From the NCBI GenBank assembly GCA_050084515.1, contig CM114271.1:1116001-1180000 (forward strand): a stretch of 64,000 nt of DNA. The letters are read 5' to 3'. The number at the start of each line of letters is the position of its first letter. Position 1 is the first letter of the stretch. Made by a program: the position numbers and the translations under genes. The notes beneath the pieces were generated by a model. It had not been told where the DNA came from. It ran no database searches and was given only the letters and a program-made list of their open reading frames with translations. Positions 1 through 25,333 of this stretch are shown piece after piece. The DNA comes from Blasia pusilla (lineage: Eukaryota).

Positions 1-1044
1 TTCCTTTCATTCCATTTATACGAACTCCTCTTTGTTTTTTATTCTTCATATGTCGACTCTCGATCATATGTTGGTGGACATGGATAGACGACCGCTCGCT
101 CTTATCACAAATATACCAATCCCTTCTTAGAGAACTGGAGGACAAGCCATCATATTGAATATTGATGGCCTTTACTTATTCCCCTTGGCGCTCGCATCTT
201 TTGAGGGGGTGCTATGTAGGTTTGAAGTAACCTCACTTTCTTTGGAGCTTCTCCAAACCCGAAAGGTCTGCACCTCTCTCCTATGTGAACATAATTCATT
301 TGTGCCATTTGTTAGTAGTGTTCAAATTTGGTATTTTTGGAGAAGCCTACTTTTTTTAGCGCCTTCCCTAACATTTATCGTGCACATTTCCACATTTTCT
401 ATGTTGAATCCCTCTTCCATTAATTCCTACAAATCTACATAATTTTCACAAATTGGCACGTGTGGAGGCTCAAAAAAGAAGTTGTGTGTTTCGTGCATAG
501 AAACTAACGCCCCAAGTGTAAATACGCCCTGTTCTATTGATTGAATCGTCTCCAACGTAAGTTCATTCCATCCACGATCATTTCTCATGCCAATATATTT
601 TTGACCTTTATCTAAAGACTCTTATTTATAATTCTTATGTTTATTCAGACTCCCAATTTCCTCAAATCCCATAGACATACGTGATTTTTGAATGGTATTT
701 TGTGGCAAAGTTCAGGAAAGGAAACGAGCCAATCGTGATGATAAATTGGCAATTCAACGACAAAAAAAGAGGACCTACCAACAAGAGTATAAGGGTTTCA
801 CGTTCATTCCTCTTCTATTTTGGTAGTAGAGGTCATTTCAAGTCTTCAAAATATCCAACCACCAACTAATGGAAGTCCATCCATAAGGTCTTATATTCGA
901 ACTTGTGTTTCCTTCTTTTTGTGCATCTTTGCTCTTAACCCTTCCACATTCATATCCAACTTTGTGTTCTTTCTAATCTTTGTAAACTTTCTCTCTTTTT
1001 GCAAGCCTCTCAATGATTGATGTAATGGTTTGGTAGATAGAATT

Positions 1045-2148
1045 ATGGAGGTGGAGAAGATGAGTTCATTCAAAAATATTCTACAATTCAGGTACAAGAA
1101 GTTGCCACTTATGGATCGCCAAGAGTTCAATTACCTAGCATCTCACTCTATGAAGTTTCCGAGATTCCTACGACTAGGCAACAGTACAGACAACACCAAG
1201 AGATGAGTTAACTACCAATACCCTTATTCAAGATGGACTATTGGAGACTCAACATGAAGTCATCAATAATGCCTCAACTCTTCGCAATATTTGGAGTGAA
1301 GTAGTCTTAAGAGTGGATATTTTTCCATTTGCGCTTGATGAAAGCATGTTACCAATACAACGTGCCACTAACCCAAATGCCTGCACAATTTTCCCTTTGC
1401 CTAATATTGATAGAGTCGTAAGGGTTAACAAATTTTCTCAATATTGCAAGGAGACCAAACTTCCAAGAAAGTGATATTATGAAGTTGCGATTACAAAAGA
1501 GTTTCAATCCTACAAGTGGTCGTCATACAATGGGTCATATGATGGAAATATATCCATCATGCCGTGCTCTAGATTGGAAATATGAAATGGTGAGAGGTCC
1601 AAGTCTCATGACTCATCATATGGTATATGTTTTGACCATGGGAAGATATCTTTGCCCCTTTTGAAGGCATCTCCTCCATTCTTGAAATCATTGATTTTAG
1701 GTGTTGTTCCTATAGCTAGGAGTTTTTTTTTTCCTCATCCAAGAGTTTACAATTTTGCACTTCAACTAGCATATACTTGACACTTCAGGGTTCAAGGTAG
1801 GATCTATCATTCTATTGGACCCTTACATCTTGAGATGGGGACTAATCCCCAATTTTTTGTATTTTACATTCATGATACTATAAATGAATTGGAGAATGGT
1901 GAAAGAGTTATGTGTAGGTTTATTCATTTTAATTATAAGATCTTGAAAGGGATACAAGAGATATTCTATGAATGCAATCTATATGTCAATATTTTTTGTT
2001 GTATGGGCAACGAGGCAAGTGACCTTAATATGACGATCATCCAAAACTCAAGTAAGAGAGGTATCAATGCAAAGTGTTATAACTTGCCAATTACTTCTAA
2101 GGTGGTCGCTATTTTACCAGGTGATGGAAGTGAACATGTTGACCATCG
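1045..2148 (+). pseudogene. Helitron H1 RepHel remnant, 5' part (cut at 2148 by retroelement A)
   Basis: 1500-2148 aligns with 49680-50355 of the fuller Helitron. ORF 1835-2176 (QFFVFYIHD..NELENGERVM..ECNLYV..VVAILPGDGSEHVDHR) parallels QFAQLYVHD..NELENRGRVM..ECNPYV..VVAILSGDDSEHVDYR. Many stops and frameshifts. The 5' end was not located. Confidence 0.88.
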
Positions 2149-2347
2149 TGTCATGACCATACGGACTATGTCGTAGAGTATAGTGTGCTAGTAGAGGCCG
2201 TACCTTATGTAGGGCCGTAGTGTCTAGGTAGAGATGCGGTTTCATACATAGGGTTGGGGGTTACTCAGTTGAGGGTGACTTTTCCAATAGGCTCGATTGT
2301 ATGTGATTCTATACGTGTTTTATGACAGAAGGTCTTTCACGGATTTC
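2149..2347 (+). repeat. Family A terminal repeat A1 (about 165 bp internally deleted)
   Basis: Matches the reverse complement of 8338-8701 and also 15073-15373. It ends GGATTTC and is not followed by the B segment. Confidence 0.9.
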
Positions 2348-2359
2348 ACTCAAAGAACT
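2348..2359 (+). promoter_or_regulatory. Putative self-priming primer-binding site of family A
   Basis: ACTCAAAGAACT directly after A1 is the exact complement of AGTTCTTTGAGT (15201-15212), which lies 30 nt downstream of a TATA at 15171 in repeat A. Confidence 0.7.
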
Positions 2360-3839
2360 CGAGTAGATCGATGGTAGCTTCGATCGTGGATCAGTAGGAT
2401 CTGGTTGGGGCTGATTGTGTACTCAACCGTGGATGTTCATGGCTTGTGGCCTATGTTGGAGGTATGAATCTGGTGCGTGGTTGGTTGGGAAATAACCGCC
2501 TTGCTAAGAGCTTTCCAACGGGCATTAGATCGCCGGATTTCGTTAAGGGAGTTGGAAGTTATCAAGGATTGAAGATTGTGGTTAGTGTTCGACTGTTTTT
2601 TGATATGGAGAGCTTTGAATGCGGAAGCTTTGTTGAAGTTCATCCAGATTGGGTGAGAGGTTCCTGTTGCTACCTGTATTTTGATCTCATGTGAAGCTAT
2701 CTGCTTGAGTGTGTGGAGCGTTGCGGATTTTTGTGTGCATGAATCTGGGCGGAAGCGTATGCGATTCTGGAGGTGTATGGACAGCAAGTTTGTCTGATTT
2801 TTAGCTCAGAGTACAGAGCTCGGTTGTAGTTGATTTTTGTGGAGAGATAGCTATGGTGGCCAATTGAATTTTGGTCAAAATAGATTAAATTTTGGTCAAG
2901 GATTCGTGGAGTTATTGCTGATCGAAATTTTATGGATAGTAGATCGGAGGGGTTGGTCGATTGGTGACTCGTCCATTGTTGGAGATGCCTATCCCGTTGA
3001 GGGCGCCCTGGTTGGGCCTCTCTCCATAGCGAAGCATGGAAAACGGGGTGATAGGGGCATGTCTCGAGCATTTCTCGGCGTTTCGAGGCTTCGAGGCAAC
3101 TCGTGGTAGCTCGGGGCGAATGGGCGTGAGAGGCGGAGTAAGGAGCAAGGAGCAAACAAGCTTGCTTGCATGGGCGTGAGACAGTTTTTGCAGGATTTGT
3201 GAGTTGGGTGTTGCATAACTAGTCCTCCATCTTTGGGCTATTCTGCCTGGAAGACGCTTAACTGTTGAGTAGTTGAGTAGCCATTGGTTTCACCTTCCGG
3301 GCCACTGTCTTGTATTTTGTGTACACTTGTGCATCCATGGGATGTTCGTCAGACTCAAACCCGTGCACATCCGCTTCCTTCTCCGTAGATTCATATTCAT
3401 TTTCTCCTTCCATGAACCTTGATATCTCTTCATGCAACTCACGCGAGTGAATTGTAATCACCCTTGTATCCAGCGAATCGGTGTTCATATGGGTAAACAC
3501 CTCTTCAAGACTATCTCCAAAACCCTCTTCTTCATACATCCCACTAATGAACTCTTCATCTAATAGAAAACCCTTACATTTTAACAAACCCTCCTTTTTT
3601 TTCATAAAACGTCTTTTCTTTTCATTCATTTCTTTCATCATTTGGAATCTACTAGACCACGAAGAAAAACATTGAGAAAACCCACACCTAAACATATACG
3701 ATTCTTCCCCCTCTACTAGCGGAAGACTCCTTCTTTTCTCAGCAGCCCCATATTCCCGCTCTATAGGAGTGCTAACTAAAAATCCGAAAACTCTTTCTCT
3801 ACCTTCATAGGACCATCTCTTAACTTCTCTCTATTCCTT

Positions 3840-6095
3840 TCATGACTTACTCAAAAAGAAGGAATTGGCGATCTTGTTCCATCCTCGACTTCTAATACGG
3901 GCATAATGAGACCCATCATCCATGACTTTGGTCTCCATTCTAGATGTTGTGATGTAAGGTTGCCCAAGAATCATAGGATAAGCAGCTCCATTCTGAACAA
4001 AGAAATTTTGCTCAATCAACACATCTCCGATACGAGTTTTGACGGATGGACAAGCATCATAGAGTTCATCTTTTTGGTTGTTAGCCGCTCCTAGTACCCA
4101 TCCATGCCCTGTATCAATTGGCCATATCCCTTTGTCGTACACACTTCGCGACATGATGTTGATCTCCGAACCATGATCAACGAGAGCCAAAACTGACTCT
4201 TGAAGAGAGCCAAGTCGAACTCTAGCCTCCGTCGTTGCACGCGCCCAATATGATCGAGAATAGTGTCCACCATTATGCCTTTCTTCACCTTGTTCTATCA
4301 AGGCTTCTCCTACTCTCGCCTCTTTTCCCTGTAAGTTAAGCTTTTGTCCAAACACTTGGCAAAGCTCTTCATCTTCTTCTTCTGTGATGTAAGTATCCAA
4401 AGCTCTCACCATCACCATATCTGCAGTCATCTGCCTCTTCCTTTTGATCACATCTATGATCAACTCATGAAAGTCACGTTTGGCTATGCCCAAGACTTCC
4501 CTCAAAGAAAACTCTATTTTCGCATCCAAAATCCTCTCCTCAAGAATCTCCTTTAAATTCGTGCTTGTCTCGATATCAGACTGCAGCTTGTATGTAGGAG
4601 TCTTACCCTTGGTCTTCTGAGGAGACCTCAATTCGTTCTTCTTGGTCCTTGATGCTTTGACATGAGAATCCCTCATAGATTCAGATGTGGAAGGTCCTTC
4701 TTCTCTTGATGGCTGCGCCTCCGGTTGTCCTTTTCTTCTTAAGGTCCTTGCTCTTCTTGCGGCTTCCTCAGCATCAACACCATCATTTTCGCGTCTCCTC
4801 TTCTCCTCCACACTAGCATCTTGCCAACTCACATGTTTCTCTTGTGTTAGGTATGCTTTAACAGACCCAGCTTCCACTGGATCATCCCATCCAGTCAGAT
4901 GACGGATAGTCTCTGCCTCTCGTATCATAACTTCTCGAGGAAATTCTAATGATTCACTTTTAGCTACAAATACAATAGACACTTCAATTTTTACTGCAAA
5001 GGTATCAGAATCTAATGTCGTAGTGGCAACTCCTACTTGACTTCTCACTAAGCCTTTCATACCTCCTCTACCAAAGTTGGTATTCAACGGCATACCAGTC
5101 TGCGTTGAATGAATCTTCCCATCTTTGAAGTTTATTATTCCATTTCTAAGAGCTTCTGAAAATTCCTCACATTCTCGACGTTGATGCTCAACACTATCAC
5201 ACCATATACATCTTCTCACAAAGTTCTTACTTGTTGAAGGAGCACCAACACTAGGATTCCTATCAAGTTTAAGCTCAGCCATTTCTACTCTCAACTCTCT
5301 CAAACCTTTCACCAACTCATCAATGGTAGAATCTTCAAGCTTTGCTGGCATGGGCTTAGGCAATGGATTTGAAATTGGTACCTCCGACTTGAATACTGTG
5401 GTTCTACCTCTACTTCGACTTTGCTTTGTGAGGATAGCAACAGCTTCTTCCACTTTCTTCCAATTAGTGCTGACACCTTCTTCTTCATTCTTGTCCGCCA
5501 ACATTATAAAAAGCTTGTCCTCCAAATTCTCATCTTCCGCCTCAAGGAATAACTCGGTTTTCCTCAAGTCTAGAGCTGCTCTTTCAGAAGGAGAAAGCTG
5601 AAAAAACCGCTTCTCAAACTCACGCAACAATTCATTTGGATTCATTCCCTTCCTTGGACGTTGCTCTATCCATTCTAGAAAACTCCTCTTAGTCACCCGA
5701 TCCACATCATCATCGAAGAATTCTCCTTTCAGCAACTGTTCGTACTCCTCCCATGAGGTTGGATTTTCTGCTCTCAACTTCTTTACTTGACTACGGATCT
5801 CTGGTATTACAGCTAACTCAAAACTTGACACCATATCACCTTTGGGTACACGGTTAACCTCCATCTCACAGACGTACTCTCGAACATACCTGGTGATGTT
5901 CCCGCCATCAAATCTTCCCAACTTCTTTACAATCGCTTGGAGAGCCCTTGTTGATCTTTGCTCTCCGATGTGAACTCCTCCTTGTTGGCTCAACAATGTT
6001 GTCAAAGTTCGGAGAAGATCTTCAGCTCCCTCACTTCCAATTGATGAAGTACTCCCAAAAGTAGTCATCTCGATAAGACTCCAACTTGCAAACAC
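3840..6095 (-). CDS. Gag-aspartic protease polyprotein of element C
   Basis: Gag-like N-terminus (RFDGGNITRYVREY), zinc knuckle CIWCDSVEHQRREC, protease ALVDHGSEINIM..MILGQPYI. The segment YKLQSDIE..ILDAKIEFSLREVLGIAKRDFH resembles DUF4100 from memory (unverified). Confidence 0.85.
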   Translation of the reverse strand: MFASWSLIEMTTFGSTSSIGSEGAEDLLRTLTTLLSQQGGVHIGEQRSTRALQAIVKKLGRFDGGNITRYVREYVCEMEVNRVPKGDMVSSFELAVIPEIRSQVKKLRAENPTSWEEYEQLLKGEFFDDDVDRVTKRSFLEWIEQRPRKGMNPNELLREFEKRFFQLSPSERAALDLRKTELFLEAEDENLEDKLFIMLADKNEEEGVSTNWKKVEEAVAILTKQSRSRGRTTVFKSEVPISNPLPKPMPAKLEDSTIDELVKGLRELRVEMAELKLDRNPSVGAPSTSKNFVRRCIWCDSVEHQRRECEEFSEALRNGIINFKDGKIHSTQTGMPLNTNFGRGGMKGLVRSQVGVATTTLDSDTFAVKIEVSIVFVAKSESLEFPREVMIREAETIRHLTGWDDPVEAGSVKAYLTQEKHVSWQDASVEEKRRRENDGVDAEEAARRARTLRRKGQPEAQPSREEGPSTSESMRDSHVKASRTKKNELRSPQKTKGKTPTYKLQSDIETSTNLKEILEERILDAKIEFSLREVLGIAKRDFHELIIDVIKRKRQMTADMVMVRALDTYITEEEDEELCQVFGQKLNLQGKEARVGEALIEQGEERHNGGHYSRSYWARATTEARVRLGSLQESVLALVDHGSEINIMSRSVYDKGIWPIDTGHGWVLGAANNQKDELYDACPSVKTRIGDVLIEQNFFVQNGAAYPMILGQPYITTSRMETKVMDDGSHYARIRSRGWNKIANSFFLSKS

Positions 6096-6112
6096 AAACT
6101 ACCGCCTCCAAG

Positions 6113-6132
6113 AGCTCTTAGTGGAAGCACCA
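6113..6132 (-). promoter_or_regulatory. PBS of element C, probably tRNA-Thr type
   Basis: The minus strand reads TGGTGCTTCCACTAAGAGCT 2 nt after the LTR's terminal CA. It complements a tRNA 3' end ..GGAAGCACCA, resembling plant tRNA-Thr (from memory). Confidence 0.6.
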
Positions 6133-6134
6133 TT

Positions 6135-7399
6135 TGTCGTGTCTAGAGTCTTTCTTCGAGCAAGGGCGGGCCTTCTAGCTGCGGTCGATGCAAGGTGAAC
6201 TCTCTAATAAGTTCTCCTTTTTCAATACAAAATTATGATGTACACTCTCCATTCTCTCACGACACGTATCACAAATGGAAGTGCCGAGGCGATCACTTTT
6301 TCGTAACATCGGAACCCAAAATTCCTAACTATAAAATCCCTATAAACTATTTTACGCTTGTACACGAGGAAGATAGCACAACTAGTGTTAAACCCTACTT
6401 GAGCACGCCTATTGACATCCATGGATCGCTATATAAGGACATACAAAGTACAATCCCATGTCCTTCCATATGTGACAATAGGAAGAATCACCGGAGTTTG
6501 AGATTGCATGACCTGGTTCATGAACGCCTCCCCAAAGTGATAAACTAAATAGCGAGTGAACCAGTGCCTATCAACAAAGAGTACCTTGACATGGTAAGGA
6601 TTGAGGAAAGGAAAGTCGGGCACAGCTCGTGATCCACCCCTATCCATGCTTGACACACATTCTCTACTCTCCTCAAGAATGGGTTTTGGTAGAGTTATTC
6701 TCCCAAGAGGGGTAATCCACTCTCATTGGGGAAGTAACAAGCCAAAACATCCACTATTTTAGTATGACTAAACTCCTCTCCGGTGACAAACCTCTCATCC
6801 CCACACACACACAACCACACTCTAGAAATCTCTCGAAGAATAGACCATGGTCAAGTTACTCTCCCAAGAGGGGTGATCCACTCTCATTGGAAGAGCAAGC
6901 AATCCCAAAGCCATACACTCAAGAGAGACACGAGAGACTCAAGATGTGGAATAGAAGGTGATGAACCCTTGAAGGTCCCTCCTCTTTATATACTCACAAG
7001 GGATCAACAAGAGTACGAAATAGAGCTTATTTTATCTTGTGCCACATGGCTTCCTCTCAAGGCTTAGCCAATCATATTTTGACACAAGTAGATTTCCTCT
7101 TATCTCTTCTAAAATATCCTCTTTTACCCACATGATATTTTCCAAATTACCCCAACTAACCTAGCCACCAACCAAGACTACTTTTGCTTTTCATTAAAGC
7201 AACTACTTTAGTTTTATAAAGTCATCTTTTATTTATTACCTCCTTTTCCTAAAATTGGGCCCGCATAAAAGAGGCACCATAAAGAGGTTTAAACATAAGA
7301 ATCTCTTTTTTATAAGCCAATTTACTTAATACTAATGAAACTCTATCTAACACTTAATGACGAAGGAGTTTACACACTGGTTGATTTTACTTTACGACA
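6135..7399 (-). repeat. 5' LTR of element C (~1265 bp)
   Basis: Inverted termini TGTCGT/ACGACA with adjacent PBS. Family A gag resumes at 7400. Internal ~40-bp direct repeat near 6692 and 6853. Confidence 0.75.
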
Positions 7400-8230
7400 C
7401 CGTGGTGCGGACAGTGGTAGTTTTACCACGAGTGGATTGAGGTATCGGCTACCTTTTCCACTTCCGACGGTTGATGAAGAGGAGGACGAGGGTGTTCCAA
7501 ACACCGATTCTTCTACGTTGTTATCGAGTGTTGCAGCTCCATTGATTTGGGACATGGACGGGATATATCGGGCCATGAAGGGCCCACGATGATACTCGGA
7601 TGCAGTGGGCACTATTGAGTTGAAGGACTTCATTCAGGAGTTTGATATGTGGTGTGATATGCAGATGTTGCGGAACACTACATTATTTACACCCTTCTTG
7701 GCTTGGAAGGGGTTGTTTCAGCACTTGGAGCGACCACCCATGGACGATTACCATGAGTTTAGGAAGGACCATGTTTCTGAGATTGAGGCCTGGAGACAAT
7801 ATTGGTCTCCAGGCTATGTATCTATCACCCATGGTGGTATTGGTAGTAGTGCTCCTACTATGCCCACCCCACGTTGAGTGTTATGAGTACGAGCCGGAGT
7901 GGGGTACCAATGGAGGTACCCATGGAGGTACTAGTGGAGGTAATAGTGCCCCACCATCATTCAGCCCAGTTGCAAAGTTCTTCAAGAGGTTGAAGAAGAA
8001 CTATTAGGGAGTGAAGACAAAGAAGTTGAGGAATCTTCAAGAATTTGATCGAAAGACTGGTGAGAGTCTTTATGAGGCATACTCTCCTATGCGAAACTTG
8101 ATTTCAGTTACCCAGGGTGTGATTGAGGCTCAGGCAGTCCAGTTTTGGTATGGGATCTTGGACAGAGAGTTGGGATAGGTGATGCTACTCTTATGACTGA
8201 TGATTCACCCACATTGACCAATGTGTTTGT
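7400..8230 (+). pseudogene. gag remnant of element A
   Basis: VGTIELKDFIQEFDMWCDMQ..PMDDYHEF..EIEAWRQYW is homologous to family B gag (VGTIELHDFIAEF..PMHDYHEF..EIEAWRLYY). Stops present. Confidence 0.8.
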
Positions 8231-8810
8231 TGTCGTGCGAATCCACATCGTCATACAACATACATCGCTGACAAACCATACTCACATACATACATAACAT
8301 AGACGAGAGCATCCACAAACACAAGTGTACCAAAATTGAAATCCGTGAAAGACCAACTTTCATAAAACACGTATAGAATCACATACAATCGAGCCAAACC
8401 TACTCCACGATGGGAGAATCTAGGTCGAAGCTTGGAAACACCATATCCAAGAGCTCTACTCACTACCAAGGCTAACTCCCAACGCAACAGGCTCAACTCA
8501 AAGAACTAACAGTTCTTTGAGTGCACTCCACCTTATATCCTCCAACCTAAGAGCGGGCCCTACTGGAAAAGTCACCCTCAATGGAGTAACCCCCAACCCT
8601 ATGTATGAAATTGCATCTCTACCTAGACACTACGGCCCTACATAAGGTATGGCCTCTACTAGCACACTATACTCTACGACATAATCCGTATGGTCATGAC
8701 AGCTGTCGTGTGAATCCACATCGTCATACAACATACATCGCTGACATACCATACTCACATACATACATAACATAGACGAGAGCATCCACAAACACAAGTG
8801 TACCACAACT
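8231..8810 (-). repeat. Family A 3' terminal block: B1 (8704-8810), 2-bp spacer GC, A2 (8338-8701), B2 (8231-8337)
   Basis: The 107-bp B segment occurs twice around the 364-bp A segment. The B1/A2 junction reads ACGACA-GC-TGTCATG. PPT TAGGGGGGCG lies at 8811-8820 on the minus strand. Confidence 0.92.
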
Positions 8811-8982
8811 CGCCCCCCTAACTAGCGGTTAGATCCCTCTAACTCCCAGGTAGCCCTATACATCTACTACATGCTATACACCTTCTTGGGTGCACGAATC
8901 AGAAGGCCGGGTGCAAGGTTGCCTCATCGTTAGTCGCACATCTATAATCCATATCATGCAAAGATCAAGTCATCTACCTCTC

Positions 8983-10575
8983 CTAAGTACATCGAGGACA
9001 AACCCACCTTCCAGTAGGAACAACATCCATACGTGGAGTCAAACACATCATGTGCCAACCCGTAGAACACCGATCACACACCAACATACGGGTTGCGTTA
9101 CCAGCAGACCCACACAACATGCACCTCAAGCTAGCACGTATCATGGCTAAGCTTGGATCAACAGTACCATCCACATTTGGAAGATGACATGGTGCACAAT
9201 TACGATCATGGTCCTTCCAAACAACTCCATCACGACCCTCCAACATGAGAACTCCAGAAGCTAACACCTCGCGCACTCGTAAAATAGTGCGGTCTGCCGT
9301 CACATCCAACGTTGTCGGTGCAATCTGCTGCAAATAGACATAGTCTCCAACATGGAACCTACGAATCGATGGTCGATAACCTCCACCCCGAATGGTTACA
9401 TACCGCAACGTATCACTGTGTTGTTAAGCAATGGCAAGATTCTCAAAGGCTGTTGGCATAACTCTCCGAAAGAGCTCTGCCCGCTGAGATCACACTCTCA
9501 TCCATATCTCTAGGTCATCAAGGTTCACCACCCCACTAGACTCCCGACAAATTGATGCTGGCAAGTCTGGATCTCGGCAGTATAACAGAAAATAAGGTGA
9601 GAAGGAAGCCAAGGATGCTTGGCAACTGAAGCTATACCCCATGGCTAACCATGGCAACTGAATATCCCTGTCTCCAAGATGCCCCTTGTGTAGGCCATAC
9701 TTGCGCAATGCCCTCTTCACCGTCTGAACCATACGCTCAGCCAAACCATCCGCCTTTGGATAATCTCGAGACGTGGTCCGATGATCAATCAACGCCTTGT
9801 CACACAAGACCTCAAACTCACCCTGAAACTCTGTATCCTGGTCGATCAACACCTCAACTGGTGCACCAAAATGACTAAGCACTCTATCAAGAAACGCATA
9901 CGCCGTTCCCTCACTTGCCTTGTCAGGTAATGCCACCAAATCAATCCACTTGGAGAAGTGCTCCACCATCACCAACACATATCGATGATGTCGTAAATTC
10001 AACGGTAACGGTCCTACAAAGTCCATACTCCAACGGTAACCCAACCCCACAATAGGAAAAGGGTGTAACTGTGGTGTAGGGGCATTGAATGATGCCCTCA
10101 CCCGGTCACAAACCATACAACGTGACACCAACTGCTGCACCAGAGTATGCATGCCACGCCACCAATATTGACCAAGGAGTAAGCTATACCTACGCTTTAT
10201 CCCAAAATGTCCCAACTCCTCATGGGCATGTCGCACAATGCGCTCTCTCTGAGCCAAATGCGGCACTACTCGTACTCTATCATCCTCCCACACAAGGAGA
10301 ATATGTGTTCCCTCCAATCGATACCTCTTAGCACGTCGAAGAACACCGTCTCGCTCCTTGGCACTCACTATGCCTAGCATCCTACTGGTCCGTAGGAACT
10401 CCAACACCAACGCATCATCATGAATATCAAGCTGATCCGTACCACCATCTCCAACCTTAGGATTTGAAAGTTGGCCATCTACCCTCTGACTAGAGTAAGA
10501 TGTCATGTGGTCCTCCATACTAGAGTCCACCCCTAACCAACATAAAAAGGCGGATGCATGCCAACCTGGCACCAT
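8983..10575 (-). pseudogene. Integrase (HHCC + DDE) with C-terminal PHD finger, family A
   Basis: HAHEELGHFG..CMVC, WSMDFVGPLP, VLIDQDTEF, DGLAERMV. PHD is CMLC..MLVCDRC..WHMMCLTP..VPTGRWVCPRC (C4HC3). In-frame stops lie between the two ORFs. Confidence 0.92.
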
Positions 10576-10599
10576 CTCCTCATCAACCTCGCCATGCCA

Positions 10600-12158
10600 T
10601 CTAGCCCCGGTTCTCTTCTTGGCTAGTACATGGGTTCCTACTCAACCCATCAGCATCAAGGTTGGCAACTCCATGTCTATGTACCACCTCGAAGTCATAC
10701 TCCTGTAAGACAAGAGCCCACCGTGCAAGCTTCCATGTAAGCTTGTCAGACTCCATCAACCACTTGAGGGGCTGGTGATCAGTAACAATGGTAAAATGTG
10801 TGTCAAACAAGTAACACCTAAAGTGTCCATCAACCACTTGAGGGGCCAGTGACGATAACAAGGGTAAAATGTGTGCCAAACAAGTAACACCTAAAGTGTG
10901 CCAAGCACTCTCCCTCATATGAACTATAGTGCGGCTCCGTTGCATTATTCGAACGACTTGCATAGGCCACCACAAACTCCATGTGCTCATCATCATGTTG
11001 TGTCAACACCGCTCCAAGTCCCAACCTACTCCAATCAGTGTGTAACTGAAATGGGCGCCCTCTGATAGGTCTTCTCAAGATAGGCGCCGCCACCAATTGG
11101 GCCTTGAGCTCCACAAAAGCTCTCTCCTGATCATCTCCCTAGTGCCACTCCTGATCTGATTTCAGCAATTGGTTCAAAGGCTTTGCCATAGCACTAAATC
11201 CCTTCACATACCTCCGATAGTAGTTCGCCAATCCCATGAATGCCCGAACTCTACTCACATCTACCGGACGCGGAATAAGTGCAATAGCCTCCACCTTTGC
11301 TTGCTGAACTCCCAAACCATGTGGATAGATCACATGACCCAAGTACTCTACATCCTCATGGAAGAACTTACACTTTCTTGGATGCAAACGTAGACCATGA
11401 GCTTGCAACCGCTCAAACACCATCTGAAAATATATCTGATGCTCCTCCACCGTGTTATTGAACACCAAGATATCATCAATATAACACCGAACAAAATCCA
11501 ACCCTGCTAGGATCTTGTCGATCACTCTCTGAAACTCGGCATGTGCATTCTTCAACCCAAAGGGTAGGAATTTCCACTGGTACAAATAATCCTTGGCATG
11601 AGAGTTGACACCCCAAAATGCTGTCTTGGCCTTGTCACTCTCCCGAATCGGCAATTGATGGTATCCTGCCCGGAGATCCAAAGTACTGAAAATCTTTGCA
11701 TGTCCCACCACATCAAAGATCTCCTCAGGTGTAGGCATGGCATACCTATCGGCCTTGGTCTACCGATTGATAGGACGGTAATCTCCACACATCCGCCTAT
11801 CCGTGTAGTTGCCATGCATATCCTTTTTAGCAGGCATGATAATGGCTGATGCATACTCTCCATGCGACAACTCCATTAATCCAGCCTCCAAAAGGTCCAA
11901 CGTCCTACTCTAAATCACATCCCTCTCCATATCACTATATCGGTAGGTACGACGGAAGATTGCCGTATCACTAGCCAAATCAATCCGTATACCGGGTCCA
12001 ACCAGAGCACCCAACTCCTTCATGCTAAAGGCAAAACAACTCTTATAAGCACGTAGGAACCGTATCAAGCGTCGTTTCTCACCTCCCGTAAGCTTGGGCC
12101 CAAGTAATGGCTCCCAAGTCTCCTCCACTAGCACACTAGAGGGAGAGGACGATGCCAT
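10600..12158 (-). pseudogene. Reverse transcriptase and RNase H, family A
   Basis: FSTLDLRAGYHQL, LPFGLKNA, CYIDDILVF, FQLHTDWS, VVAYASRS, TDHQPLKWL. Stops and frameshifts present. Confidence 0.95.
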
Positions 12159-12360
12159 TGGCTACTACGCAACCCCCTCACAAGATGGTACACCCTTAGC
12201 TACACCATCATCTGAGCAAATAGCTCCTCCACCAGCATGAGCAACCAACTCCACATGCCCATCCATTACATCCCATTTACTCCAAGGATGCAAAATATTA
12301 CTCTCCTCGCCCCCAGCCGATGCCTCTACCGTCCCGGTAGCCTTCGAGCTCATTACAAGG

Positions 12361-12722
12361 GGTCTCCAGGCTATATGTCTATCACCCATGGTGGTATTGG
12401 TAGTAGTGCTCCTACTATGCCAGCCAGCCCAACGTTGAGTGGTACGAGTATGAGCCGGAGTGGGGGTACCAGTGGGGGTACTAGTGGAGGTACTAGTGCC
12501 CCACCATCGTTTAGCCCGGTTGCAGAGTTCTTCAAGAGGTTGAAGAAGAACTATCAGGGAGTGAAGACAGGGAAGTTGAGGAGTCTTCAAGAATTTGAGC
12601 GAAAGACTGGTGAAAGTCTTCATGAGGCATACACTCGTATGCGACGCTTGATTTCAGTTACCCAGGGTGTGACTGAGGCTCACGCAGTCCAATTTTGGTA
12701 TGGGATCTTGGACAGAGAGTTG
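12361..12722 (+). pseudogene. Second copy of family A gag segment
   Basis: Roughly 93-95% identical direct repeat of 7804-8172. It joins by deletion to the pre-DNMT region. Confidence 0.85.
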
Positions 12723-12859
12723 CGCCGCAGGAGGCTTGGTGTGAGGCTCTTATACCTCACGAGGAAGAGGAGGCCCCACGGTGGACTCCTACTTCTGGTC
12801 CAGTTGGGTTATCCTCTTTGGTTACTACACCCATTGTATGGCAGTATCCGCCGGAGGGC

Positions 12860-13642
12860 ATTTGTGTGTTAGATCTCTTTGGTGGGATTAGCACTGGTTT
12901 GGCTGTAGTGTTGCAGGCCGGTATTCCTGTGCGGAGATACGTGTATATGGAGCGAGATGCGACGGCCCAGAGAGTCTCATCCCGACATATTGGTTAGTTG
13001 ATGCGGAGATATCCGGAGTTGGTACTGCCATCAGCTATTCGTGGGTACCAGCGTGCTTTGCCGTCACACATTGCATTGTTGGGAACGCATGACCTTGAGA
13101 GGGTTGGTCCTGTGGATTTGGTGATTGTTGGATGGCCATGTCAGGGTCATACACATGCTGGTCGTGGGGAGGGATTACAGGACCCTAGGTCTCAATTGTT
13201 CTGGGAGATCTTACAAGTGTTACGACATCTTCAGGTTCATCAGGCACGTGCTCCAATTTACATTCTGGAGAATGTTCCATTATTGGATGACACTGGGACC
13301 CGGATGATGGAGAGTGTTCATGAGGTGCGGTCTTGGATTAGACCAGCGGTGTTGTTGGATGCAGCGCGAGTTAGCTCGCGTGCACATCGTCCACGCTTGT
13401 GGTGGACAAACTTGTTGCTAAGGGAGGTTCTACGTCGAGCATATGATGGAGTGCAGCGGGATCCTTGCCTTACAGTGGATAGTATCTTGGATAGTGGGCG
13501 ACTTTCTCAGGTGGTGAGGGTTATTGATCGGTCATCCATGGCAGTGGTGAACTGTGTGGGCCAGTCTAGGATGGCACTACCCACATTTGTGAGTTTTCCC
13601 TCGTCACATACCTACAGGGAAGGTGGTCTCGGGCTTGTATGG
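12860..13642 (+). pseudogene. DNMT3-like C5-cytosine DNA methyltransferase domain in element A pol (C-terminal motifs deleted, one stop)
   Basis: Motif I VLDLFGGISTG, II YVYMERD, IV DLVIVGWPCQG, VI YILENV, VIII AHRPRLWWTNL (ORFs 12695-12997 and 12998-14104). Confidence 0.93.
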
Positions 13643-15047
13643 GCTTGCACGGTGGCTCTTGTCTTACAGGAGTATGACTTCGAGGTGGTACATAGACATG
13701 GAGTTGCCAACCTTGATGCTGATGGGTTGAGTAGGAACCCATGTACTAGCCAAGAGGATACAACTGGGGCTAGATGGCATGGCGAGGTTGATGAGGAGAT
13801 GGTGCCAGGTTGGCATGCATCCGCCTTTTTATGTTGGTTAGGGGTGGACTCTAGTATGGAGGACCACATGACATCTTACTCTAGTAAGAGGGTAGATGGC
13901 CTGCTTTCAAATCCTAAGGTTGGAGATGGTGGTAAGGATCAGCTTGATATTCATGATGATGCGTTGGTGTTGGAGTTCCTACGGACCAGTAGGATGCTAG
14001 GCATAGTGAGTGCCAAGGAGCGAGACGGTGTTCTTCGACGTGCTAAGAGGTATCGATTGGAGGGAACACATATTCTCCTTGTGTGGGAGGATGATAGAGT
14101 ATGAGTAGTGCCGCATTTGGCTCAGAGAGAGCGCATTGTGCGACATGCCCATGAGGAGTTGGGACATTTTGGGATAAAGCGTAGGTATAGCTTACTCCTT
14201 GGTCAATATTGGTGGCATGGCATGCATACTCTGGTGCAGCAGTTGGTGTCACGTTGTATGGTTTGTGACCGGGTGAGGGCATCATTCAATGCCCCTACAC
14301 CACAGTTACACCCTTTTCCTATTGTGGGGTTGGATTACCGTTGGAGTATGGACTTTGTAGGACCGTTACCGTTGAATTTACGACATCATCGATATGTGTT
14401 GGTGATGGTGGAGCACTTCTCCAAGTGGATTGATTTGGTGGCATTACCTGACAAGGCAAGTGAGGGAACGGCGTATGCGTTTCTTGATAGAGTGCTTAGT
14501 CATTTTGGTGCACCAGTTGAGGTGTTGATCGACCAGGATACAGAGTTTCAGGGTGAGTTTGAGGTCTTGTGTGACAAGGCGTTGATTGATCATCGGACCA
14601 CGTCTCGAGATTATCCAGAGGCGGATGGTTTGGCTGAGCGTATGGTTCAGACGGTGAAGAGGGCATTGCGCAAGTATGGCCTACACAAGGGGCATCTTGG
14701 AGACAGGGATATTCAGTTGCCATGGTTAGCCATGGGGTATAGGTTCAGTCGCCAAGCATCCTTGGCTTCCTTCTCACCTTATTTTTTGTTATACGACCGA
14801 GATCCAGACTTGCCAGCATCAATTCGTCAGGAGTCTAGTAACGTGGTGAACTTTAACGACCCAGAGATGTGGATGAGAGTGTGATCTCAGCGGGCAGAGC
14901 TCTTTCGTAGAGTTATGCCAAGAGCCTTTGAGAATCTTGCCATTGCTCAACACAGGGATACAATGCGGTATGCAACCATTCAAGGTGGAGGTTATCAACC
15001 ATCGATTCGTAGGTTCCATGTGGGGGACTATGTCTATTTGCAGCAGA
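13643..15047 (+). pseudogene. End of RNase H plus integrase, element A (RT deleted)
   Basis: ORFs 12998-14104 (3' part) and 14108-14884. Near-identical inverted copy of 9324-10730. Confidence 0.92.
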
Positions 15048-15072
15048 CAAATAGACATAGTCCGTAGATTTG

Positions 15073-15480
15073 CCGAAGTGTCTAGGTAGAGATTCGGTTT
15101 CATAGATAGGGTTGGGGGTTACTCCGTTGAGAGTGACTTTTCTAGTAGGGCCCTTTCTTAGGTTGGAGAATATAGTGTGGAGGGCACTCAAAGAACAGTT
15201 AGTTCTTTGAGTTGAGCCTGTTGCGTTGGGAGTTAGCCTTGGTAGTGAGTAGAGCTCTTGGCTATGGTGGTTCCCGCAACATTCGACCTCGATTCTCCCA
15301 TCGTGAAGTGGGTTTGGCTCGATTGTATTTGATTCTATACGTGTTTTATGACAATAGGTCTTTCACGGATTTCAGTTGTGATACACTTGTATTTGTGGAT
15401 GCTCTCGTCTACGTTATGCATGTAGGTGAGTATGGTATGTCAGCGATGGATGTTGTATGACGATGTGGATTTGCACGACA
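15073..15480 (+). repeat. Family A right terminus: partial A2 (to 15373) and B2 (15374-15480)
   Basis: Matches the reverse complement of 8231-8640. The 107-bp B2 ends ACGACA. PHD, PPT, B1 and the start of A2 are deleted. Confidence 0.9.
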
Positions 15481-15494
15481 ATCAAGATAGAATT

Positions 15495-16011
15495 TGTCAC
15501 GTCTCTTAGGATAGATCGGTGGGATCTAGTAGAGCGCCTTTGTGAGTAGCGGAGGACAGGCTCAATAGGTCAAGGATGACTTGCTCAGGCCACAGGAAAC
15601 TTGAGAGAGCAGGTTTCCACTTCGTTTCGGCTCATTTGGAGCCATATTGAGGAACTTATTATTTCAGGTACGTACCATTTTGAGTATGTGATCGACTTTC
15701 TATTTTTGGTAAGTGGACCTTGACCTCCTACATGAGGTCAAGAGCCAAGGAGGTGACTTGGGAGCATAGGTTACCATGTAGAGAGCTTGGGAGAGGGGAA
15801 GGGTATACTTCAAAGAGAGAGAAAGAGCTTGAGATCTCATTCTCTCTTTGTTGAACTTCTTGGCATAAAGCAGCGGAGCTATGATCCCTTGCCTTGTGAG
15901 TGTAATCCAAGCCTCTCATTAGGAGAGTGGGTTTGGTTTGACATGAGAAAGAGTGCACACCTTTGAGAGCTATGGTGTGAGATGGTGTAGAGAGAGATTG
16001 GATCTTACTTT
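15495..16011 (+). repeat. Family B terminal repeat A1
   Basis: About 90% match to 25464-25978. It is followed by internal sequence, not by segment B. Confidence 0.92.
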
Positions 16012-16013
16012 AA

Positions 16014-16027
16014 AAAGAGAGGATGAG
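16014..16027 (+). promoter_or_regulatory. Putative self-priming PBS of family B
   Basis: AAAGAGAGGATGAG pairs (one G-U) with CTCATTCTCTCTTT at 15836-15849, about 30 nt after TATA at 15804. Confidence 0.65.
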
Positions 16028-18039
16028 AGAGTGAGAGAGCTTCATGGAGAAGCTTGCTGGTCATTCACTTTTTTTGGAGGTTGGGGACCGTGTTCCCCAT
16101 TCAGCGGCTCATGGGAGTGCTCACCGGAGCAAGGGCTACTTTGATTGTTCTTTGCATTTGCCGATTTTTCATGTGGAAGAGTGGCACGCGAAAGCGCTGC
16201 CCAATTTTTGATAGGGATTGCTTATGGGGGCGAGTTGCCCCATGTTGGTACTCTCGGGAGCACCATGTAGCTTGTTGATTTGCATTTTTTAGGTTTTGAC
16301 ATTTTTGTTGGGAGAAATCAGCGCAGAAGCGCTGCCAGCTTTTTATAGGAGAAAGAGACATTGGGCTTTACGACAGTCCCTATCAGTTTTTACTGGAATG
16401 TTCAATTCTAAATATTTTTTGACGTTATTGTAGATCATGAACCTTTGTACCATGTGCAACAAAAAATGCATAATTTGGAGTTGCAAGCAAAAAGTTATGG
16501 TCAATCTTAAAAAATTGCCATTGCTAGGCGATTTTTTGGGTTAAATTGTTCAAACCCTAAACTAGCCGCCACGCCGGCGGTGGCCGTCTCCTTCATAGTC
16601 ACCGTCAACGGTCCGCCGTCGATGGGCAACCCTCACCGCCAACGGTCAACCGTCACTGATATAGGTCAACTGTCATCGTCATTGGTCGTCCGTCACCATC
16701 AACGGTCAACCATCATCGTCAACGATCCACTATCCGTGGTCCACCCTTTGACCCTAAATCATGGAGTTCATAATGGAGATAGAGCAGATGAGTTCATTCA
16801 AAAATATTCTACAATTTAGATACAAGAAGTTGCCACTTATGGATCGCCAAGAGTTCAATTACCCAGCATCTCACTCTATGAAGTTTCTGAGATTCCTACG
16901 ATCTGGCCAACAATACAGACAACACCAAGAGATGAGTTAACTACCAATACCCTTATTCAAGATGGATTATTGGACCCTCAACATGAAGTCATCAATAATG
17001 CCTCAACTCTTTGAAATATTTGGAGTAAAGTAATCTTAAGAGTGGATATTTTTCCATTTGCACTTGATGAAAGCATGTTATCGTCACCGTCATCGGTCGT
17101 CCGTCACCATCAACGGTCCATCGTGTGTTGTCCACCCTTTGGTTGCCATTGCCGCCGTTATGGAGTGGAGGTCTTCCACGACGTTCGTTGATTCTTTGAC
17201 TTGCGTCACCACCACGTACTTTGTTTTGGCCGCCACCTTCATCGCAACTTCGTCACAACCAGTGATAGCAGATGACCTCCGGTTATGGTGATTGAGTTTT
17301 AATTTCATGTTGTTATGTTGTGATTGGTAGTTGATCGACGATGATCAAGAACCGTGCGGTGACGCCCATAGCCGCCGATTGCTGCACCATGTCGCTCGTG
17401 GCCGCACCGCACCGTCTCGATTGCACAACCGCTTCTTCACTCAGGAGCAAAGCGTGTGAATTGCTCATTGAGGAGGGTATGCCCCCGAGTGCCACACCCC
17501 TTTCCTGAGTGCCGTGTTGTTTGTAGCCATTCCATGATGCAATTGCCGCACCGGACCGCTCCACCTGCACCACACATCGAGGAGGTTGAGCAACATTAGT
17601 ATGAGAGGAGTACGACTTGCTGATTGGAGGAGTTATCTTCGCGACCGAGTTGGGGTCGAGATTTGTAATTGTCGAGGAGCGACATCGCCATTATTGTCAG
17701 GTTGCCCATTCTGGTCTCTTACCCTGCATGTGTGAGGGATTTCAAAATATTGGGAAGTTATTTTTGATATAGGCTTTCGTGTTGATGCTAGGAGCATCAA
17801 TGATGTATGGGTTTAGGGGACATAGACCTGTGTGGGATGTCTAGAGTTGAGGATGGTTTGTCGATGAGACGATAGATCAGTTATTTGCCGCACCACGCTG
17901 CTTGTTGCCCATAACACACGTCTCAGTGAGAGAGTGTAGATTGAGAGCCGCATGTTTAGTTTGAGTGATTGAAGGATTACTCGTGAGATTGAGAGTGATT
18001 GTGTGAGAGGGGCACGAGGGCCATCACGGCATCTTTCAG

Positions 18040-19540
18040 GATTTTGAGAGGCGAGGTAGTGAACCTGAGAGTAGCTCTAGAGGGTTTCGGAGTGGTGCGA
18101 GGTTTCGAGGGCCTCCACCTGAGAGATCACCTCGATCTCCTTCTGTGACTTCTTCAGATGAGGGAGAGCGTATAGAGGAGTGTGTTATTGATCCACCATA
18201 CACATTGAGTGGTCCTACCAGTTGGGCGTACGATATGGACGACCGGGGTAGAGGATCGCGTAGGTTTTCGGGTGTTGTAGGCACTATAGAGCTACACGAC
18301 TTTATTGCGGAGTTTAGGAGTTAGTGTGACTCACAGCGGGGCTAGGAACTCTAGAGAGTTCAACCTATTTACAACATGGACCGGTATGTTGCAATATTTA
18401 GAGGGGGCGCCCATGCACGATTACCATGAGTTCTTCCACATATATGCCCAAGAGATTGAGGCATGGCGACTCTACTACGACCGACACTATGTGTCATGGA
18501 CGGAGCCGTTCCCAAATGAGGAGGAGGATTCAGGAGTGGTTACTTCCTCTTCTACTAGTGATGTTTTAGGAGGGATCACTCATAGTGGAGCAATTGCACC
18601 ATCCAGTCGGGTTCGTCCTAGGTTCAACCCCGTGATTGAGTTCTTCGCTGAGTTGAGGGCGAGCTACCAAGGGGTACGAACGGAGAAGTTACGGAGCATC
18701 CATGACTTCCAGAGGCGCCCGGGTGAGAGTTTGCGTGAGGCTTACACTTGCTTGCGCCGGTTGATCAATGTTACTTAGGGGGTGACAGAGGCTCAGGCTA
18801 TCCAATCATGGTACGCGATGTTGGACTAGACACTGCGGATACCGGTTCAAGAGGGGGTGCTCCTTATGAATACCTCCCCTACGTTGAGAGATGTTATTAG
18901 AATATTGAGAATGCTGAGAATATTGAGCGCAACATGGCGGAGGAGAGCGTAGCCACCATGGGTTCTGGGCGAGAGCAGTCACGATTGTCTGCAACACCAA
19001 TGCAGCAACGTGGATTCCGAGATAGGTCAACTGTGGAACCACGAGCTTAGGGAGGATACCGGGACGCAGTGCCATATATACCTGCACCTTCATATGCGGC
19101 TCAGCAGCAGCTGCCTATGATTACTTGTTGGTCATGTGGTAGAGCCCATCATCATCGCGATTGCACTCGTCTGGGTCACGGACGTGTGCCTCAGCATGGA
19201 GGAGGAGATGGTGCTACACCAAGAGGCTATCAATGTGACTATTATCAGAGGTATGGTCAAACATGCGCTAGGTGTTTCAGTTTACATCCTGAATTACGTC
19301 CGAACCAAGGGCCAGAGAGGGCACGAGAGCAAGTAGTTAGTCCGGGTGGGCCTGGAGATCGTGCACCAGGTGGTCCTCTTGGGGGACGAGGAGCTGGAGC
19401 TGCCCGACAGGGTGGTGGAGCTGCCCTTGGAGGAGGTAGAGTCCCACCACTTAGATACGTTGAGGGAGACGCCGGACGTGAGGTTGCGATGGCTGCTCAG
19501 ATACAACAGCTATAAGAGCAGATTGCCGCTATGGCATTGA
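18040..19540 (+). pseudogene. gag remnant of element B
   Basis: FQRRPGESLREAYTCLRRLI. Zinc-knuckle remnants CWSCGRAHHHRDC and CDYYQRYGQTCARC. Homologous to family A gag. Confidence 0.8.
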
Positions 19541-20154
19541 GGTTACCCAATGCCGGATCCGTGGCATCGACATCACATGGAGCAGCCAGGGATATAGAGG
19601 ATCCTGGTTGGATGTGCGGGATTGCCCAGATAGAGACCGTTGCGGTTGTGACGCGTGGAGCAAACGTAGAGTTGGATCCACAACGAGGGGAAGCCAAGAA
19701 ACACACTAGGCTTCCTCAATCTTTCACGTTGTCCGAGGCGATGAGGATCCCATCGATGGGTGCCGATCATAATTCTTGGAGAGTTGGTGATGTTGTTGGT
19801 GTGAAGGCACGGAGGGCGATGGGAGAAGCGAGTGTGACAAGTCCTATTGCTGATGCTCAGGAGGAGCATGTGTCGAGCATGTTGTTGGGGGCGGCCACTG
19901 TTGTGTACCGCACTTCTTTATTTCCTACTTCCGATGTTATGACGTTGGGGGGTACGCCCGCCGAGGCTTTTCGGCTGGCGGCTTCATTATGTGAGTGCGG
20001 AGTTGGAGTTCCTGCATCACGTTTAGAGGTGATTGTAGAGGAGGTGATGGACATGCCCTTGGATCGGATGCTCGGGCCGTCCACGTCATATTCATGGCTG
20101 GCTGCAGCTGCTAGGATGGCGGAGATGCCCGTTGACCCGCGATAGAGTGTGTGA

Positions 20155-20600
20155 TGGCTTCTCCTGGTGTTGTGTTGCTAGATAACCGAGGAGAGGTCTT
20201 CCAATTGGTGAGTTCCGAAGGTAGAGCTTTTAGTCCGCAACGGGTCTTGTTGGATTCAAGAGCACAACCCCTGATGTTGGGGAAAGCATGATTCATAGGA
20301 TTGGGCTTGACGAGAGCCGATGTAGAGCGTTATCCATTTCGGATACAGACATCCTTAGGTGGAGCAAGTACCACACATTATATCACCCGACAAGAGGTCG
20401 TGGTGAGGATTCGCGTGAGACATCCTATAGATGAGTCTATGGTGCGAGCCAAGGCAATAGTGACAAATATAGAGTCTACGACGTCTTGGTTGGTGGAGCA
20501 GTGTTATACCCGATGGGGTTTTCCCTTGATGAGTGGCAAGAGTTAGCATCCTACAGACCAGGATGGCAATCAGATGATGGGCGCCTTAACTCATTACTCA
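20155..20600 (+). pseudogene. Aspartic protease remnant of element B
   Basis: RVLLDSRAQPLMLG at about 20241-20283 (decayed LLDSGAQ), followed by PFRIQTSLGG. Confidence 0.7.
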
Positions 20601-20956
20601 TTTGATTCATAGGTGTAGTGATGGCCATGAGAGGTGGCGACCTTAGCAGCATTTAATAATGTCATCACTTGGCCTAATGATTTGATTGAGGGACATGTCC
20701 ATGCAGAGGATACTCTTGTTCTTGATATTTCTATGGAGAGGAGTGTTATGGTAGCCGCATCATTCCCTGGAGGAGAGGTATCGCTGTAGGGTATGCCGAT
20801 TGAGGAGCTTCGACGATTAGCCATTGAGCATATGCAAACCGCGTGGAGCGAGACGGTTGCACCAGAGTGTGACGGGTCAGAGGAACCCCAAGTAGGCAGG
20901 AGTCCTGCTTTGAGCCTTTGGACACCACCCCGATTATGTGGTGCATCCCAGAGAAG

Positions 20957-21900: not shown

Positions 21901-22209
21901 CTCAGGAGTAGCTGAGCAGCGTCGTTTGAGGATGTGGTAGATCACAGTTGTTGCATTGGTGAGCCCCATGCCTACCGAGATGATTAAGGCATCGATCGGG
22001 GGCAAGACTTGAGGAGATCAATACACCAGGGGTGATCGGAAGAGAAACCCTTGGACTTCTTGGGATATTTTGCAGGTACGCCAAGAGATGATGGGCACAT
22101 CATCGAGTGTGGTTCCGGGTACTACAAGTGGCGATGAGAGTTCTATTATCTAAGATGGGGTTGCACCATAGCAACCACCGACACCCGTGCCAGAGAGTCC
22201 TACCGTAGT

Positions 22210-23620: not shown

Positions 23621-24019
23621 TGCAAATGGACTCGAGTCGTAACGCATGCTTGAGTCAGCGAGATGCGACTGGAGCTCAATGGCATGGAGAGAGTGATGAG
23701 GAGTCAGTGCCAGAATGGCACGCATCAGCCTATTTAGGCTTGTTGGCTGTGGTGAGCCAAACTATGGAGACTTTGATAGCGAGGTCTGATGGAGAGTCCT
23801 TGGATCTCGAGGCCAGTGAGGAGACGACACGTGGCCGAGATATTCCCAATGATGGAGTAGTCTTGGAGTATCTGCATACAAGCAGCATTGCGAACACAGT
23901 GGGTGCTAGAGAGTGGGATCGAGTCCTACAATGGGCCAGACCGTTCCGTTGGGAGGGGACACATGTGCTGCGAGTGTGGGAGGATGGTAAAGTGCGTGTA
24001 GTGCCTCATCCTTATTAGA

Positions 24020-25150: not shown

Positions 25151-25333
25151 TAGAGTAGGTAGTTCTACATTCCGACTTGTGTCTGTGATATGGATGACAA
25201 GAAGGCGACTAACGAAGTGGCCACATGAGCACCCGGCCTTCTTGCTCTTAGCGTCCGAGAGATTTATGTCATGGTAGGTAGGGATAGATGGCTATCTGGA
25301 GTTAGAGGGACCTAACCACCAGCTAGGGGGGCG

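Follow-up and report, generated by a model that had tools for sequence, protein, structure and literature searches.

How reverse transcription is primed in a retrotransposon whose left repeat is not followed by a tRNA-type primer-binding site is the question raised by a 12-nt sequence, ACTCAAAGAACT, located at 2348-2359 (plus strand) of the window, that is, the whole stretch of 64,000 nucleotides of Blasia pusilla DNA analysed here (GC content 33-51%). This sequence adjoins the last base of the left repeat of a DNMT-carrying element, family A: the repeat ends in ...GGATTTC and the letters that follow are ACTC. Judged from the letters of the DNA, the 12-15 nt that follow the left repeat probably constitute a primer-binding site for the element's own RNA, by self-priming of the kind seen in Tf1. 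The adjacency of the site to U5, its complementarity to the repeat, the spacing from TATA, the recurrence of the arrangement in three families and the sense transcription of the leader are established here.

The window holds two families of these elements, A and B, both of which encode a C5-DNMT, a reverse transcriptase (RT), an RNase H (RH) and an integrase (IN) with H2C2 and rve domains (Pfam PF00145, PF00078, PF17917/PF17919, PF17921 and PF00665), followed downstream of the integrase by a PHD finger (PF00628) that is also present in relatives. Pfam detects no chromodomain after the integrase in A or B, and no match to a tyrosine recombinase (PF00589) in the 66 reading frames scanned. By tblastx, A and B align colinearly over DNMT-RT-RH-IN-PHD, in this order, with about 50-70% amino-acid identity, and both are Ty3/gypsy-type elements with the DNMT placed before the RT. 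The top DNMT matches are proteins of Marchantia polymorpha and Calypogeia fissa (62-70%), and the relatives of the RT-RH-IN portion include Riccia, Klebsormidium (K. nitens proteins, 44-46% identity), Closterium and many PHD-bearing polyproteins; by these matches, the host resembles a liverwort. Apart from a single frog protein, the named ones among the best 120 of these relatives listed all belong to the green lineage (liverworts, Klebsormidium, Closterium and Tetrabaena), and fungi are not represented. The target duplications have a length of 4 bp, both in the window (AATT in B, ATCG/ATCA in A) and in two metagenome loci (AAGG in L025, AATC in L046). The preliminary description had compared the priming with that of the Tf1/sushi-type chromoviruses; the presence of a PHD finger instead of a chromodomain and target duplications of 4 bp rather than 5 bp, along with the absence of fungal proteins among the best 120 relatives listed, leave membership of the Tf1/sushi/Tcn1 clade unsupported.

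The family A insertion (2149-15480, plus strand) lies between a left target-site copy, ATCG (2145-2148), and its partner ATCA (15481-15484), which agree at three of the four bases. Its left repeat body, A1 (2149-2347), starts with TGTCATG and aligns with 8701-8338 (minus strand) and with 15072-15373; according to the alignment to the other A repeats, a 176-nt internal deletion has removed its TATA, hairpin and R. Next come the predicted self-primer binding site (2348-2359), whose 12-mer is also found after the repeat end in related loci, and the leader/internal region (2360-3176), which is interrupted by a nested minus-strand element (3177-7398). At the right end, the repeat body A2 (15072-15373) carries TATA at 15171 and two hairpin arms, arm 1 at 15186-15197 (with one mismatch) and arm 2 at 15201-15212, and is followed by B2 (15374-15480), the right terminus of the insertion, which ends in ...GCACGACA; B1 has been lost from this end. 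A partial A copy in inverted orientation lies inside the element (8230-12360, minus strand). Read along its own strand, it presents a polypurine tract, TAGGGGGGCG (8811-8820), B1 or 'X1' (107 nt, 8704-8810, ending ...CACGACA), a GC spacer (8702-8703) that separates the CA end of B1 from the TG start of A2 in an att-like junction, CACGACA-GC-TGTCATG, a complete A repeat body (8338-8701) and B2 or 'X2' (8231-8337), which begins directly after U5 and also ends in ...CACGACA. The repeat body contains TATAAG (8537-8532), a hairpin made of arm 1 (8522-8511), a loop (8510-8508) and arm 2 (8507-8496, the predicted RNA 5' end), and its U5 end at 8338. This inverted copy is flanked by direct copies of a 369-nt internal stretch (7804-8172 and 12361-12722), which are 88% alike.

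Family B is complete at 15495-26106 (plus strand) as A-internal-B-A-B, between two copies of the target site AATT (15491-15494 and 26107-26110). Its left repeat, A1 (15495-16012), carries TATACT at 15804 and arm 2, the predicted RNA 5' end, at 15835-15849; the predicted self-primer binding site, AAAGAGAGGATGAGA, follows at 16014-16028. On the right side, the polypurine tract (25324-25333, the same TAGGGGGGCG) is followed by B1 or X1 (25334-25461), ending CATGACA, a GT spacer (25462-25463), the repeat body A2 (25464-25978), with its arm 2 at 25802-25815, and B2 or X2 (25979-26106), the right terminus. Families A and B are inserted 10 bp apart in one Helitron-like sequence (1440-2150 plus 26103-26900) and are independent insertions. 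An unbroken relative of this target, with a Helitron_like_N domain, is present at 49216-50990 and is uninterrupted at about 50356.

The exact complement of ACTCAAAGAACT, AGTTCTTTGAGT, is found in the A repeat, at 15201-15212 on the plus strand and at 8507-8496 in the minus-strand copy, and the presence of the 12-mer and of its complement at these coordinates is confirmed. As the preliminary description had claimed, this target starts 30 nt past the first T of TATA (15171). It is also one arm of a hairpin with 12-bp arms and a 3-nt loop (12 of 12 positions paired in the minus copy, 11 of 12 in the plus copy), in which arm 2 is the target and arm 1 repeats the letters of the site at 2348. The hairpin had likewise been recognised, with 12 bp and the target as one arm; its coordinates are 8496-8507 and 8511-8522, and not 8497-8523. 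In family B, the corresponding sequences are AAAGAGAGGATGAG at 16014-16027 and CTCATTCTCTCTTT at 15836-15849, with a right-hand copy of the latter at 25802-25815. The pairing reaches 15 nt, between AAAGAGAGGATGAGA (16014-16028) and TCTCATTCTCTCTTT (15835-15849), with one G·U position, and the target lies 31 nt past the first T of TATA (15804). The complement about 30 nt after TATA that had been proposed for this family is thus real, with one G·U pair and with coordinates correct to within one base. The B site starts 1-2 nt beyond the repeat end. That the letters differ between A and B with the pairing kept stands as described: the geometry is the same, with 170-180 nt from target to site, and a conserved TATA stands 26-31 nt ahead of the target in all three families, namely A, B and the related one from metagenomes. 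Equally sound is the statement that no TGG-type primer-binding site follows A1, since the nearest TGG past the repeat end is 25 nt away in A and about 30 nt away in B. No copy of TGGTATCAGAGC, a primer motif of the tRNA-Met type, is present in the window even when one mismatch is allowed; tRNA genes were found neither in the window nor in 45 loci, and Rfam gave no match in the window.

From these features, a cycle of self-priming can be proposed. Transcription would start about 30 nt past TATA in the left repeat, and the first 12-17 nt of the RNA (arm 2) would fold back across the R-U5 stretch of about 170-180 nt to pair with the site. The RNase H of the element would then cut the RNA at the end of the duplex, and the freed 3' end would prime minus-strand DNA, with the last base of U5 being copied first. 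Later, plus-strand strong-stop DNA would copy the primer and so regenerate the site, which would keep the site and the RNA start complementary within each family in spite of the drift of their letters. As for arm 1, which has the letters of the site and lies in U3, just upstream of the start, it may mask the internal arm 2 located towards the 3' end of the RNA and, as a proposal, leave only the 5'-terminal copy of arm 2 free to prime. Four points of this scheme are what we infer: where the RNA starts, the cut by RNase H, the act of priming and the masking by arm 1. The end of an LTR is set by the starting point of minus-strand synthesis, and the primer site must therefore abut U5. In the three families, the stretch whose complement abuts U5 starts at the distance from TATA at which an RNA is expected to begin. 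Those sequence-level predictions of Tf1-type self-priming that could be compared with the DNA all agree with it, the transcription start being a predicted one, and this claim of the preliminary description is retained as rather likely. Folding calculations are available for two RNAs: in the minimum-energy fold of the B RNA (15836-16040), nucleotides 1-14 are paired with the site, and a terminal duplex of 17 bp is present in the fold of the predicted L025 RNA (z = -2.4), a result equalled by 3 of 200 shuffles.

The complementarity was compared with random expectation and with other repeats. Allowing up to one mismatch, the A 12-mer occurs five times in the window, always at the sites named above, and none of 100 shuffles reached five occurrences. 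When the 20 nt after the A repeat were compared with shuffled repeats, the 12 Watson-Crick pairs of A were obtained in 2 of 2000 and in 0 of 2000 trials. In family B, when G·U counts as a pair, the 15 pairs with its own repeat were reached in none of 2000 shuffles and the 14 pairs with the right-hand copy in 7 of 2000; the pairing of B is purine-rich, and with Watson-Crick pairs alone its longest run has 8, a length that was also reached by 71 of 2000 shuffles. Eight other direct-repeat pairs from the window and the loci served as controls and, taken in both orientations (16 tests), gave 5-9 Watson-Crick pairs or 6-11 pairs with G·U allowed. The corresponding values were 12 for A, 15 for B with G·U and 17-24 for the related metagenome family. 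A general scan for combinations of TATA with complement pairs returned, outside the DNMT elements, mostly A/T-rich chance pairs. The window also contains a canonical Ty3/gypsy element (27025-37696), with gag, zinc knuckle, RT, RNase H and integrase and with LTRs of 1.16-1.19 kb (96.5% alike); past its left LTR, there is no TGG-type sequence and no self-complementarity beyond 7 bp.

Further copies extend the pattern. A diverged B-like copy lies on the minus strand (whole copy 45340 to 43074, with the span from arm 2 to the site at 43833-43998), and its arm 2, CTCATTCTCTTTTT (43998-43985), pairs with the site AAAGAGAGAATGAA (43846-43833) at 13 of 14 positions, 12 of them Watson-Crick and one G·U. 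This copy consists of a body, the site, about 370 nt of leader and a single B, with no second body, and its repeat carries a 1-kb insertion; it may be the product of recombination between B1 and B2 or of the cutting of both junctions. A metagenome scan with the DNMT alignment yielded 80 loci, 13 of which have an A-like left repeat with the downstream junction, with L024/L025, L036/L037 and L048/L049 being near-identical and some of these pairs probably representing one locus assembled twice. In 12 of the 13 junctions, ...TTTTC is followed by ACTCAAAGAACT (eight loci), by ACTCAAAGAATT (three), which gives a G·U pair, or by AGTCAAAGAACT (one), which loses one pair; L005 has a different sequence at this position. 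Over the 12 junctions, the number of pairs formed with the locus's own arm 2 is 12 in six (three of them with one G·U), 11 in one and 10 in three, and the repeats of L003 and L018 have lost arm 2 and the hairpin and retain the site. The U5 end and the leader of this metagenome family differ from those of A in the window, with an identical 12-mer. Within the metagenome family, the 12 junctions contain no change in the site that compensates for one in arm 2, or the reverse. Two of its loci, L025 and L046, hold the full A-internal-B-A-B structure between the 4-bp duplications given above. The distant DNMT loci (L052-L081) and a third family in L020 have right ends, and no left repeats were found in them; L055 is too rearranged for comparison. 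L001, which lacks a left repeat, has only the polypurine tract, B and the CA-GC-TG junction to show. It is a GC-rich eukaryotic gypsy-PHD element (1-10362) with a 2152-aa pol, filed under a bacterial MAG of Minisyncoccia, which is likely to be bin contamination, and it ends with the polypurine tract and B, followed by ...GCACGACA-GC-TG.

In the metagenome family, the complement is longer than in A, with 17 nt paired perfectly and up to 22-24 nt when one mismatch or G·U pairs are admitted, and it also covers arm 1, only 20-22 nt after TATA. Either transcription starts further upstream in this family, or the post-repeat sequence is a second copy of a palindrome. The letters of the loop, ATA within the repeat, are TAT in the sequence that follows the repeat, from which it follows that the post-repeat sequence is a true reverse complement and not a direct copy. 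These data bear on an alternative that we regard as unlikely, in which the post-repeat sequence and the TATA-proximal hairpin would be two copies of a palindromic signal, with a role in RNA packaging or dimerisation, protein binding or promoter control, and priming would depend on something further downstream. The mirroring of the whole hairpin over 17-24 nt by the post-repeat sequence of the metagenome family is what such a signal would produce; moreover, arm 1 has no role in the classical Tf1 scheme, and two repeats without arm 2 still keep the site. However, in the window the A repeat is followed by just the 12-mer, without a palindrome, the site of B is no palindrome either, and the sole feature common to the three families is the complementarity to a stretch about 30 nt after TATA. 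The position required of a primer site, abutting U5, is moreover the one occupied by the 12-15 nt site, and no TGG-type site is adjacent.

Still less probable is that the site binds a host primer different from tRNA 3' ends, for instance half of a tRNA, a segment from within a tRNA or some other small RNA, with the match to the element itself being secondary. Half-tRNA primers are known from some plant Ty1/copia lineages, according to the accessible text of PMC6317226. Yet the A and B sites are unrelated to each other, and the match of each to its own repeat lies equally far from TATA, so that two different host RNAs would each need to resemble the respective repeat, and the failure of Rfam to match anything in the window also speaks against this reading. 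The possibility of chance complementarity, or of a rearrangement artefact created by the deleted left repeat (2149-2347), which is the sole A-type left junction in the window and is damaged, is very remote in view of the shuffles and controls, of the same junction in 12 of 13 related loci with intact repeats and of the independent B pair and diverged B copy with the same pattern.

Expression was examined in three stranded RNA runs and one DNA run with the same species label, with reads placed on 2100-9400 at 88% likeness. Plus-sense RNA covers 2344-3319 (depth 12-29) and 7468-8199, so that the family A leader (2344-3176) is transcribed in the sense direction. A joint between 3176 and 7399 is present in 14 RNA reads, which confirms 3177-7398 as a nested insertion. 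That insertion (minus strand) has a 752-aa reading frame with a weak DUF4100 match and is expressed at a high level (depth 40-190); loose ends of RNA reads at 6729 reveal that expressed relatives of it carry TGGTATCAGAGC, which is missing in the window copy. Over the inverted A copy, sense RNA has a depth of 110-210 across 8444-9400 and of about 20 in the 8200-8443 bin, which suggests that most transcripts end within R-U5, ahead of B2. Among the positions listed, no pile-up of molecule starts was seen at 8496-8510, the library being one of ordinary RNA-seq, and no variant letter at 2200-2407. A joint of U5 (8383) to U3 (8668), omitting the U5 end, B and the start of the body, is found in 11 RNA reads; its origin could be a copy with a deletion, or else a tandem or circular form.

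The site also bears on the split repeats of these elements. The polypurine tract stands directly before B1 in A, B, L025, L046, L006, L001 and the third family of L020, and the first base of B2 comes directly after U5, in the position occupied by the start of the site at the left end. Given the tract before B1 and the site after A1, the repeat in terms of reverse transcription is B-nn-A, with the integrase ends inside it. The body starts with TGTCATG and B ends with CATGACA or CACGACA, and the inserted unit thus runs from the first base of A1 to the last base of B2; where B1 meets A2, these ends face each other in a CA-nn-TG junction. CA-GC-TG is also present in L001, L006, L014, L025, L054, L057 and L073, and the junction in its longer form, ...ACGACA-GC-TGTCATG or CATGACA-GT-TGTCATG, in L054 (9311), L057 (5420), L073 (7085) and L020 (16550). 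The junction is kept in relatives whose DNMT is just 33-35% identical and is a strongly conserved att-like site.

In every copy, the A/B joint at the right end connects the final U5 base to the base that directly follows the polypurine tract, and it is therefore equal to a blunt joining of both cDNA ends, such as a 2-LTR circle contains. These sequence features admit a tentative model, somewhat more doubtful than not, in which the split repeats are not DIRS-like in origin and derive from an ordinary LTR that is circularly permuted with respect to the integrase ends, the integrase opening one CA-nn-TG junction. By opening one junction of a circular or tandem-LTR intermediate, the integrase would generate the arrangement A-internal-B-nn-A-B with a 4-bp duplication. 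The argument made earlier that the site fixes the U5 end and agrees with permuted LTRs is upheld to this extent: the site after A1 and the polypurine tract before B1 bound the repeat. If the permuted-LTR reading is true, the circle would be the obligatory integration substrate, self-priming would set one of its boundaries, and the U5/B joint in circles or tandems would read GGATTTC followed directly by AGTTGTGG. L030 and L031 carry U5-ACTCAAAGAA-ATGCT-B, which looks like a joint of cDNA ends with a copy of the primer retained. The right end of these loci (L031 12410-13294, L030 4935-5819) is rearranged, being made of an inverted R fragment and an internal fragment plus R-U5, after which come 10 nt of the primer site, ATGCT and B.

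With respect to known systems, the Tf1 primer is 11 nt long, similar to the 12-17 nt proposed here. Tf1 and Tf2 of Schizosaccharomyces pombe and Tj1 of S. japonicus have the same self-complementary site after the LTR; in the elements described here, the start of the RNA is a predicted one. In the accessible text of PMC4600332, the site directly after the left LTR of Tf1 and Tj1 complements the 5' end of their own mRNA and no tRNA is used, self-priming being demonstrated by experiment for Tf1 and proposed for Tj1. In contrast to Tf1 and Tj1, the elements of the window have a PHD finger in place of the chromodomain, a DNMT before the RT, split repeats (A-int-B-A-B) and, in U3, an additional copy of the site (arm 1) that makes a hairpin with the primer sequence. 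Among plants, the available part of PMC6317226 (Neumann et al. 2019) reports predicted self-primers in Tcn1, a group of moss and club-moss chromoviruses (83%), and in the Ty1/copia lineage TAR (89%), and states that no other group of plant chromoviruses self-primes; Tcn1 has a chromodomain in 100% and 5-bp target duplications in 100%, and the available text of the supplement makes no mention of Marchantia. Tcn1 and TAR are likewise plant LTR retrotransposons with a predicted self-primer and without a tRNA site. Unlike Tcn1, which has no DNMT, the elements described here carry a DNMT, a PHD finger and 4-bp duplications.

In coding content and repeat structure, the closest description is that of KnitGypsy-Dnmt3 from Klebsormidium nitens, reported as having a DNMT in a Gypsy Pol and DIRS-like A-coding-B-A-B repeats in the accessible text of de Mendoza et al. 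2018 (PMC5890265), in whose main text the term 'primer binding' is absent. It shares with the elements of the window the DNMT in a Pol with RT, RNase H and DDE integrase, as well as the A-internal-B-A-B repeats; its host is Klebsormidium, whereas the best DNMT matches here are from Marchantia and Calypogeia. The split direct repeats, A1-internal-B1-A2-B2, are the same as in DIRS, Ngaro and PAT elements. An identity with that group was considered and rejected: the reading frames scanned contain no tyrosine recombinase, and the elements have a DDE integrase (H2C2 + rve), TG...CA termini and 4-bp duplications. A literature search at the level of titles and abstracts returned no paper on priming in such DNMT-gypsy elements with split repeats. 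On this comparison, it is reasonably likely that the mechanism is of the known Tf1 kind and that what is unusual is its setting, a type of element only briefly described.

To our knowledge, self-priming has been established by experiment solely for fission-yeast elements, and we know of just two plant lineages for which it has been predicted. The presence of its signature in DNMT-carrying, PHD-bearing elements of liverwort type, related to those of Klebsormidium, suggests that, within the green lineage, the mechanism had a broader origin or a broader spread. Together with the polypurine tract, the site gives these elements defined U3-R-U5 limits, which turn the puzzle of Gypsy proteins combined with DIRS-like repeats into a testable model for a split-repeat element that encodes an integrase. 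As the family is transcribed in the organism from which the DNA comes, such testing is practical.
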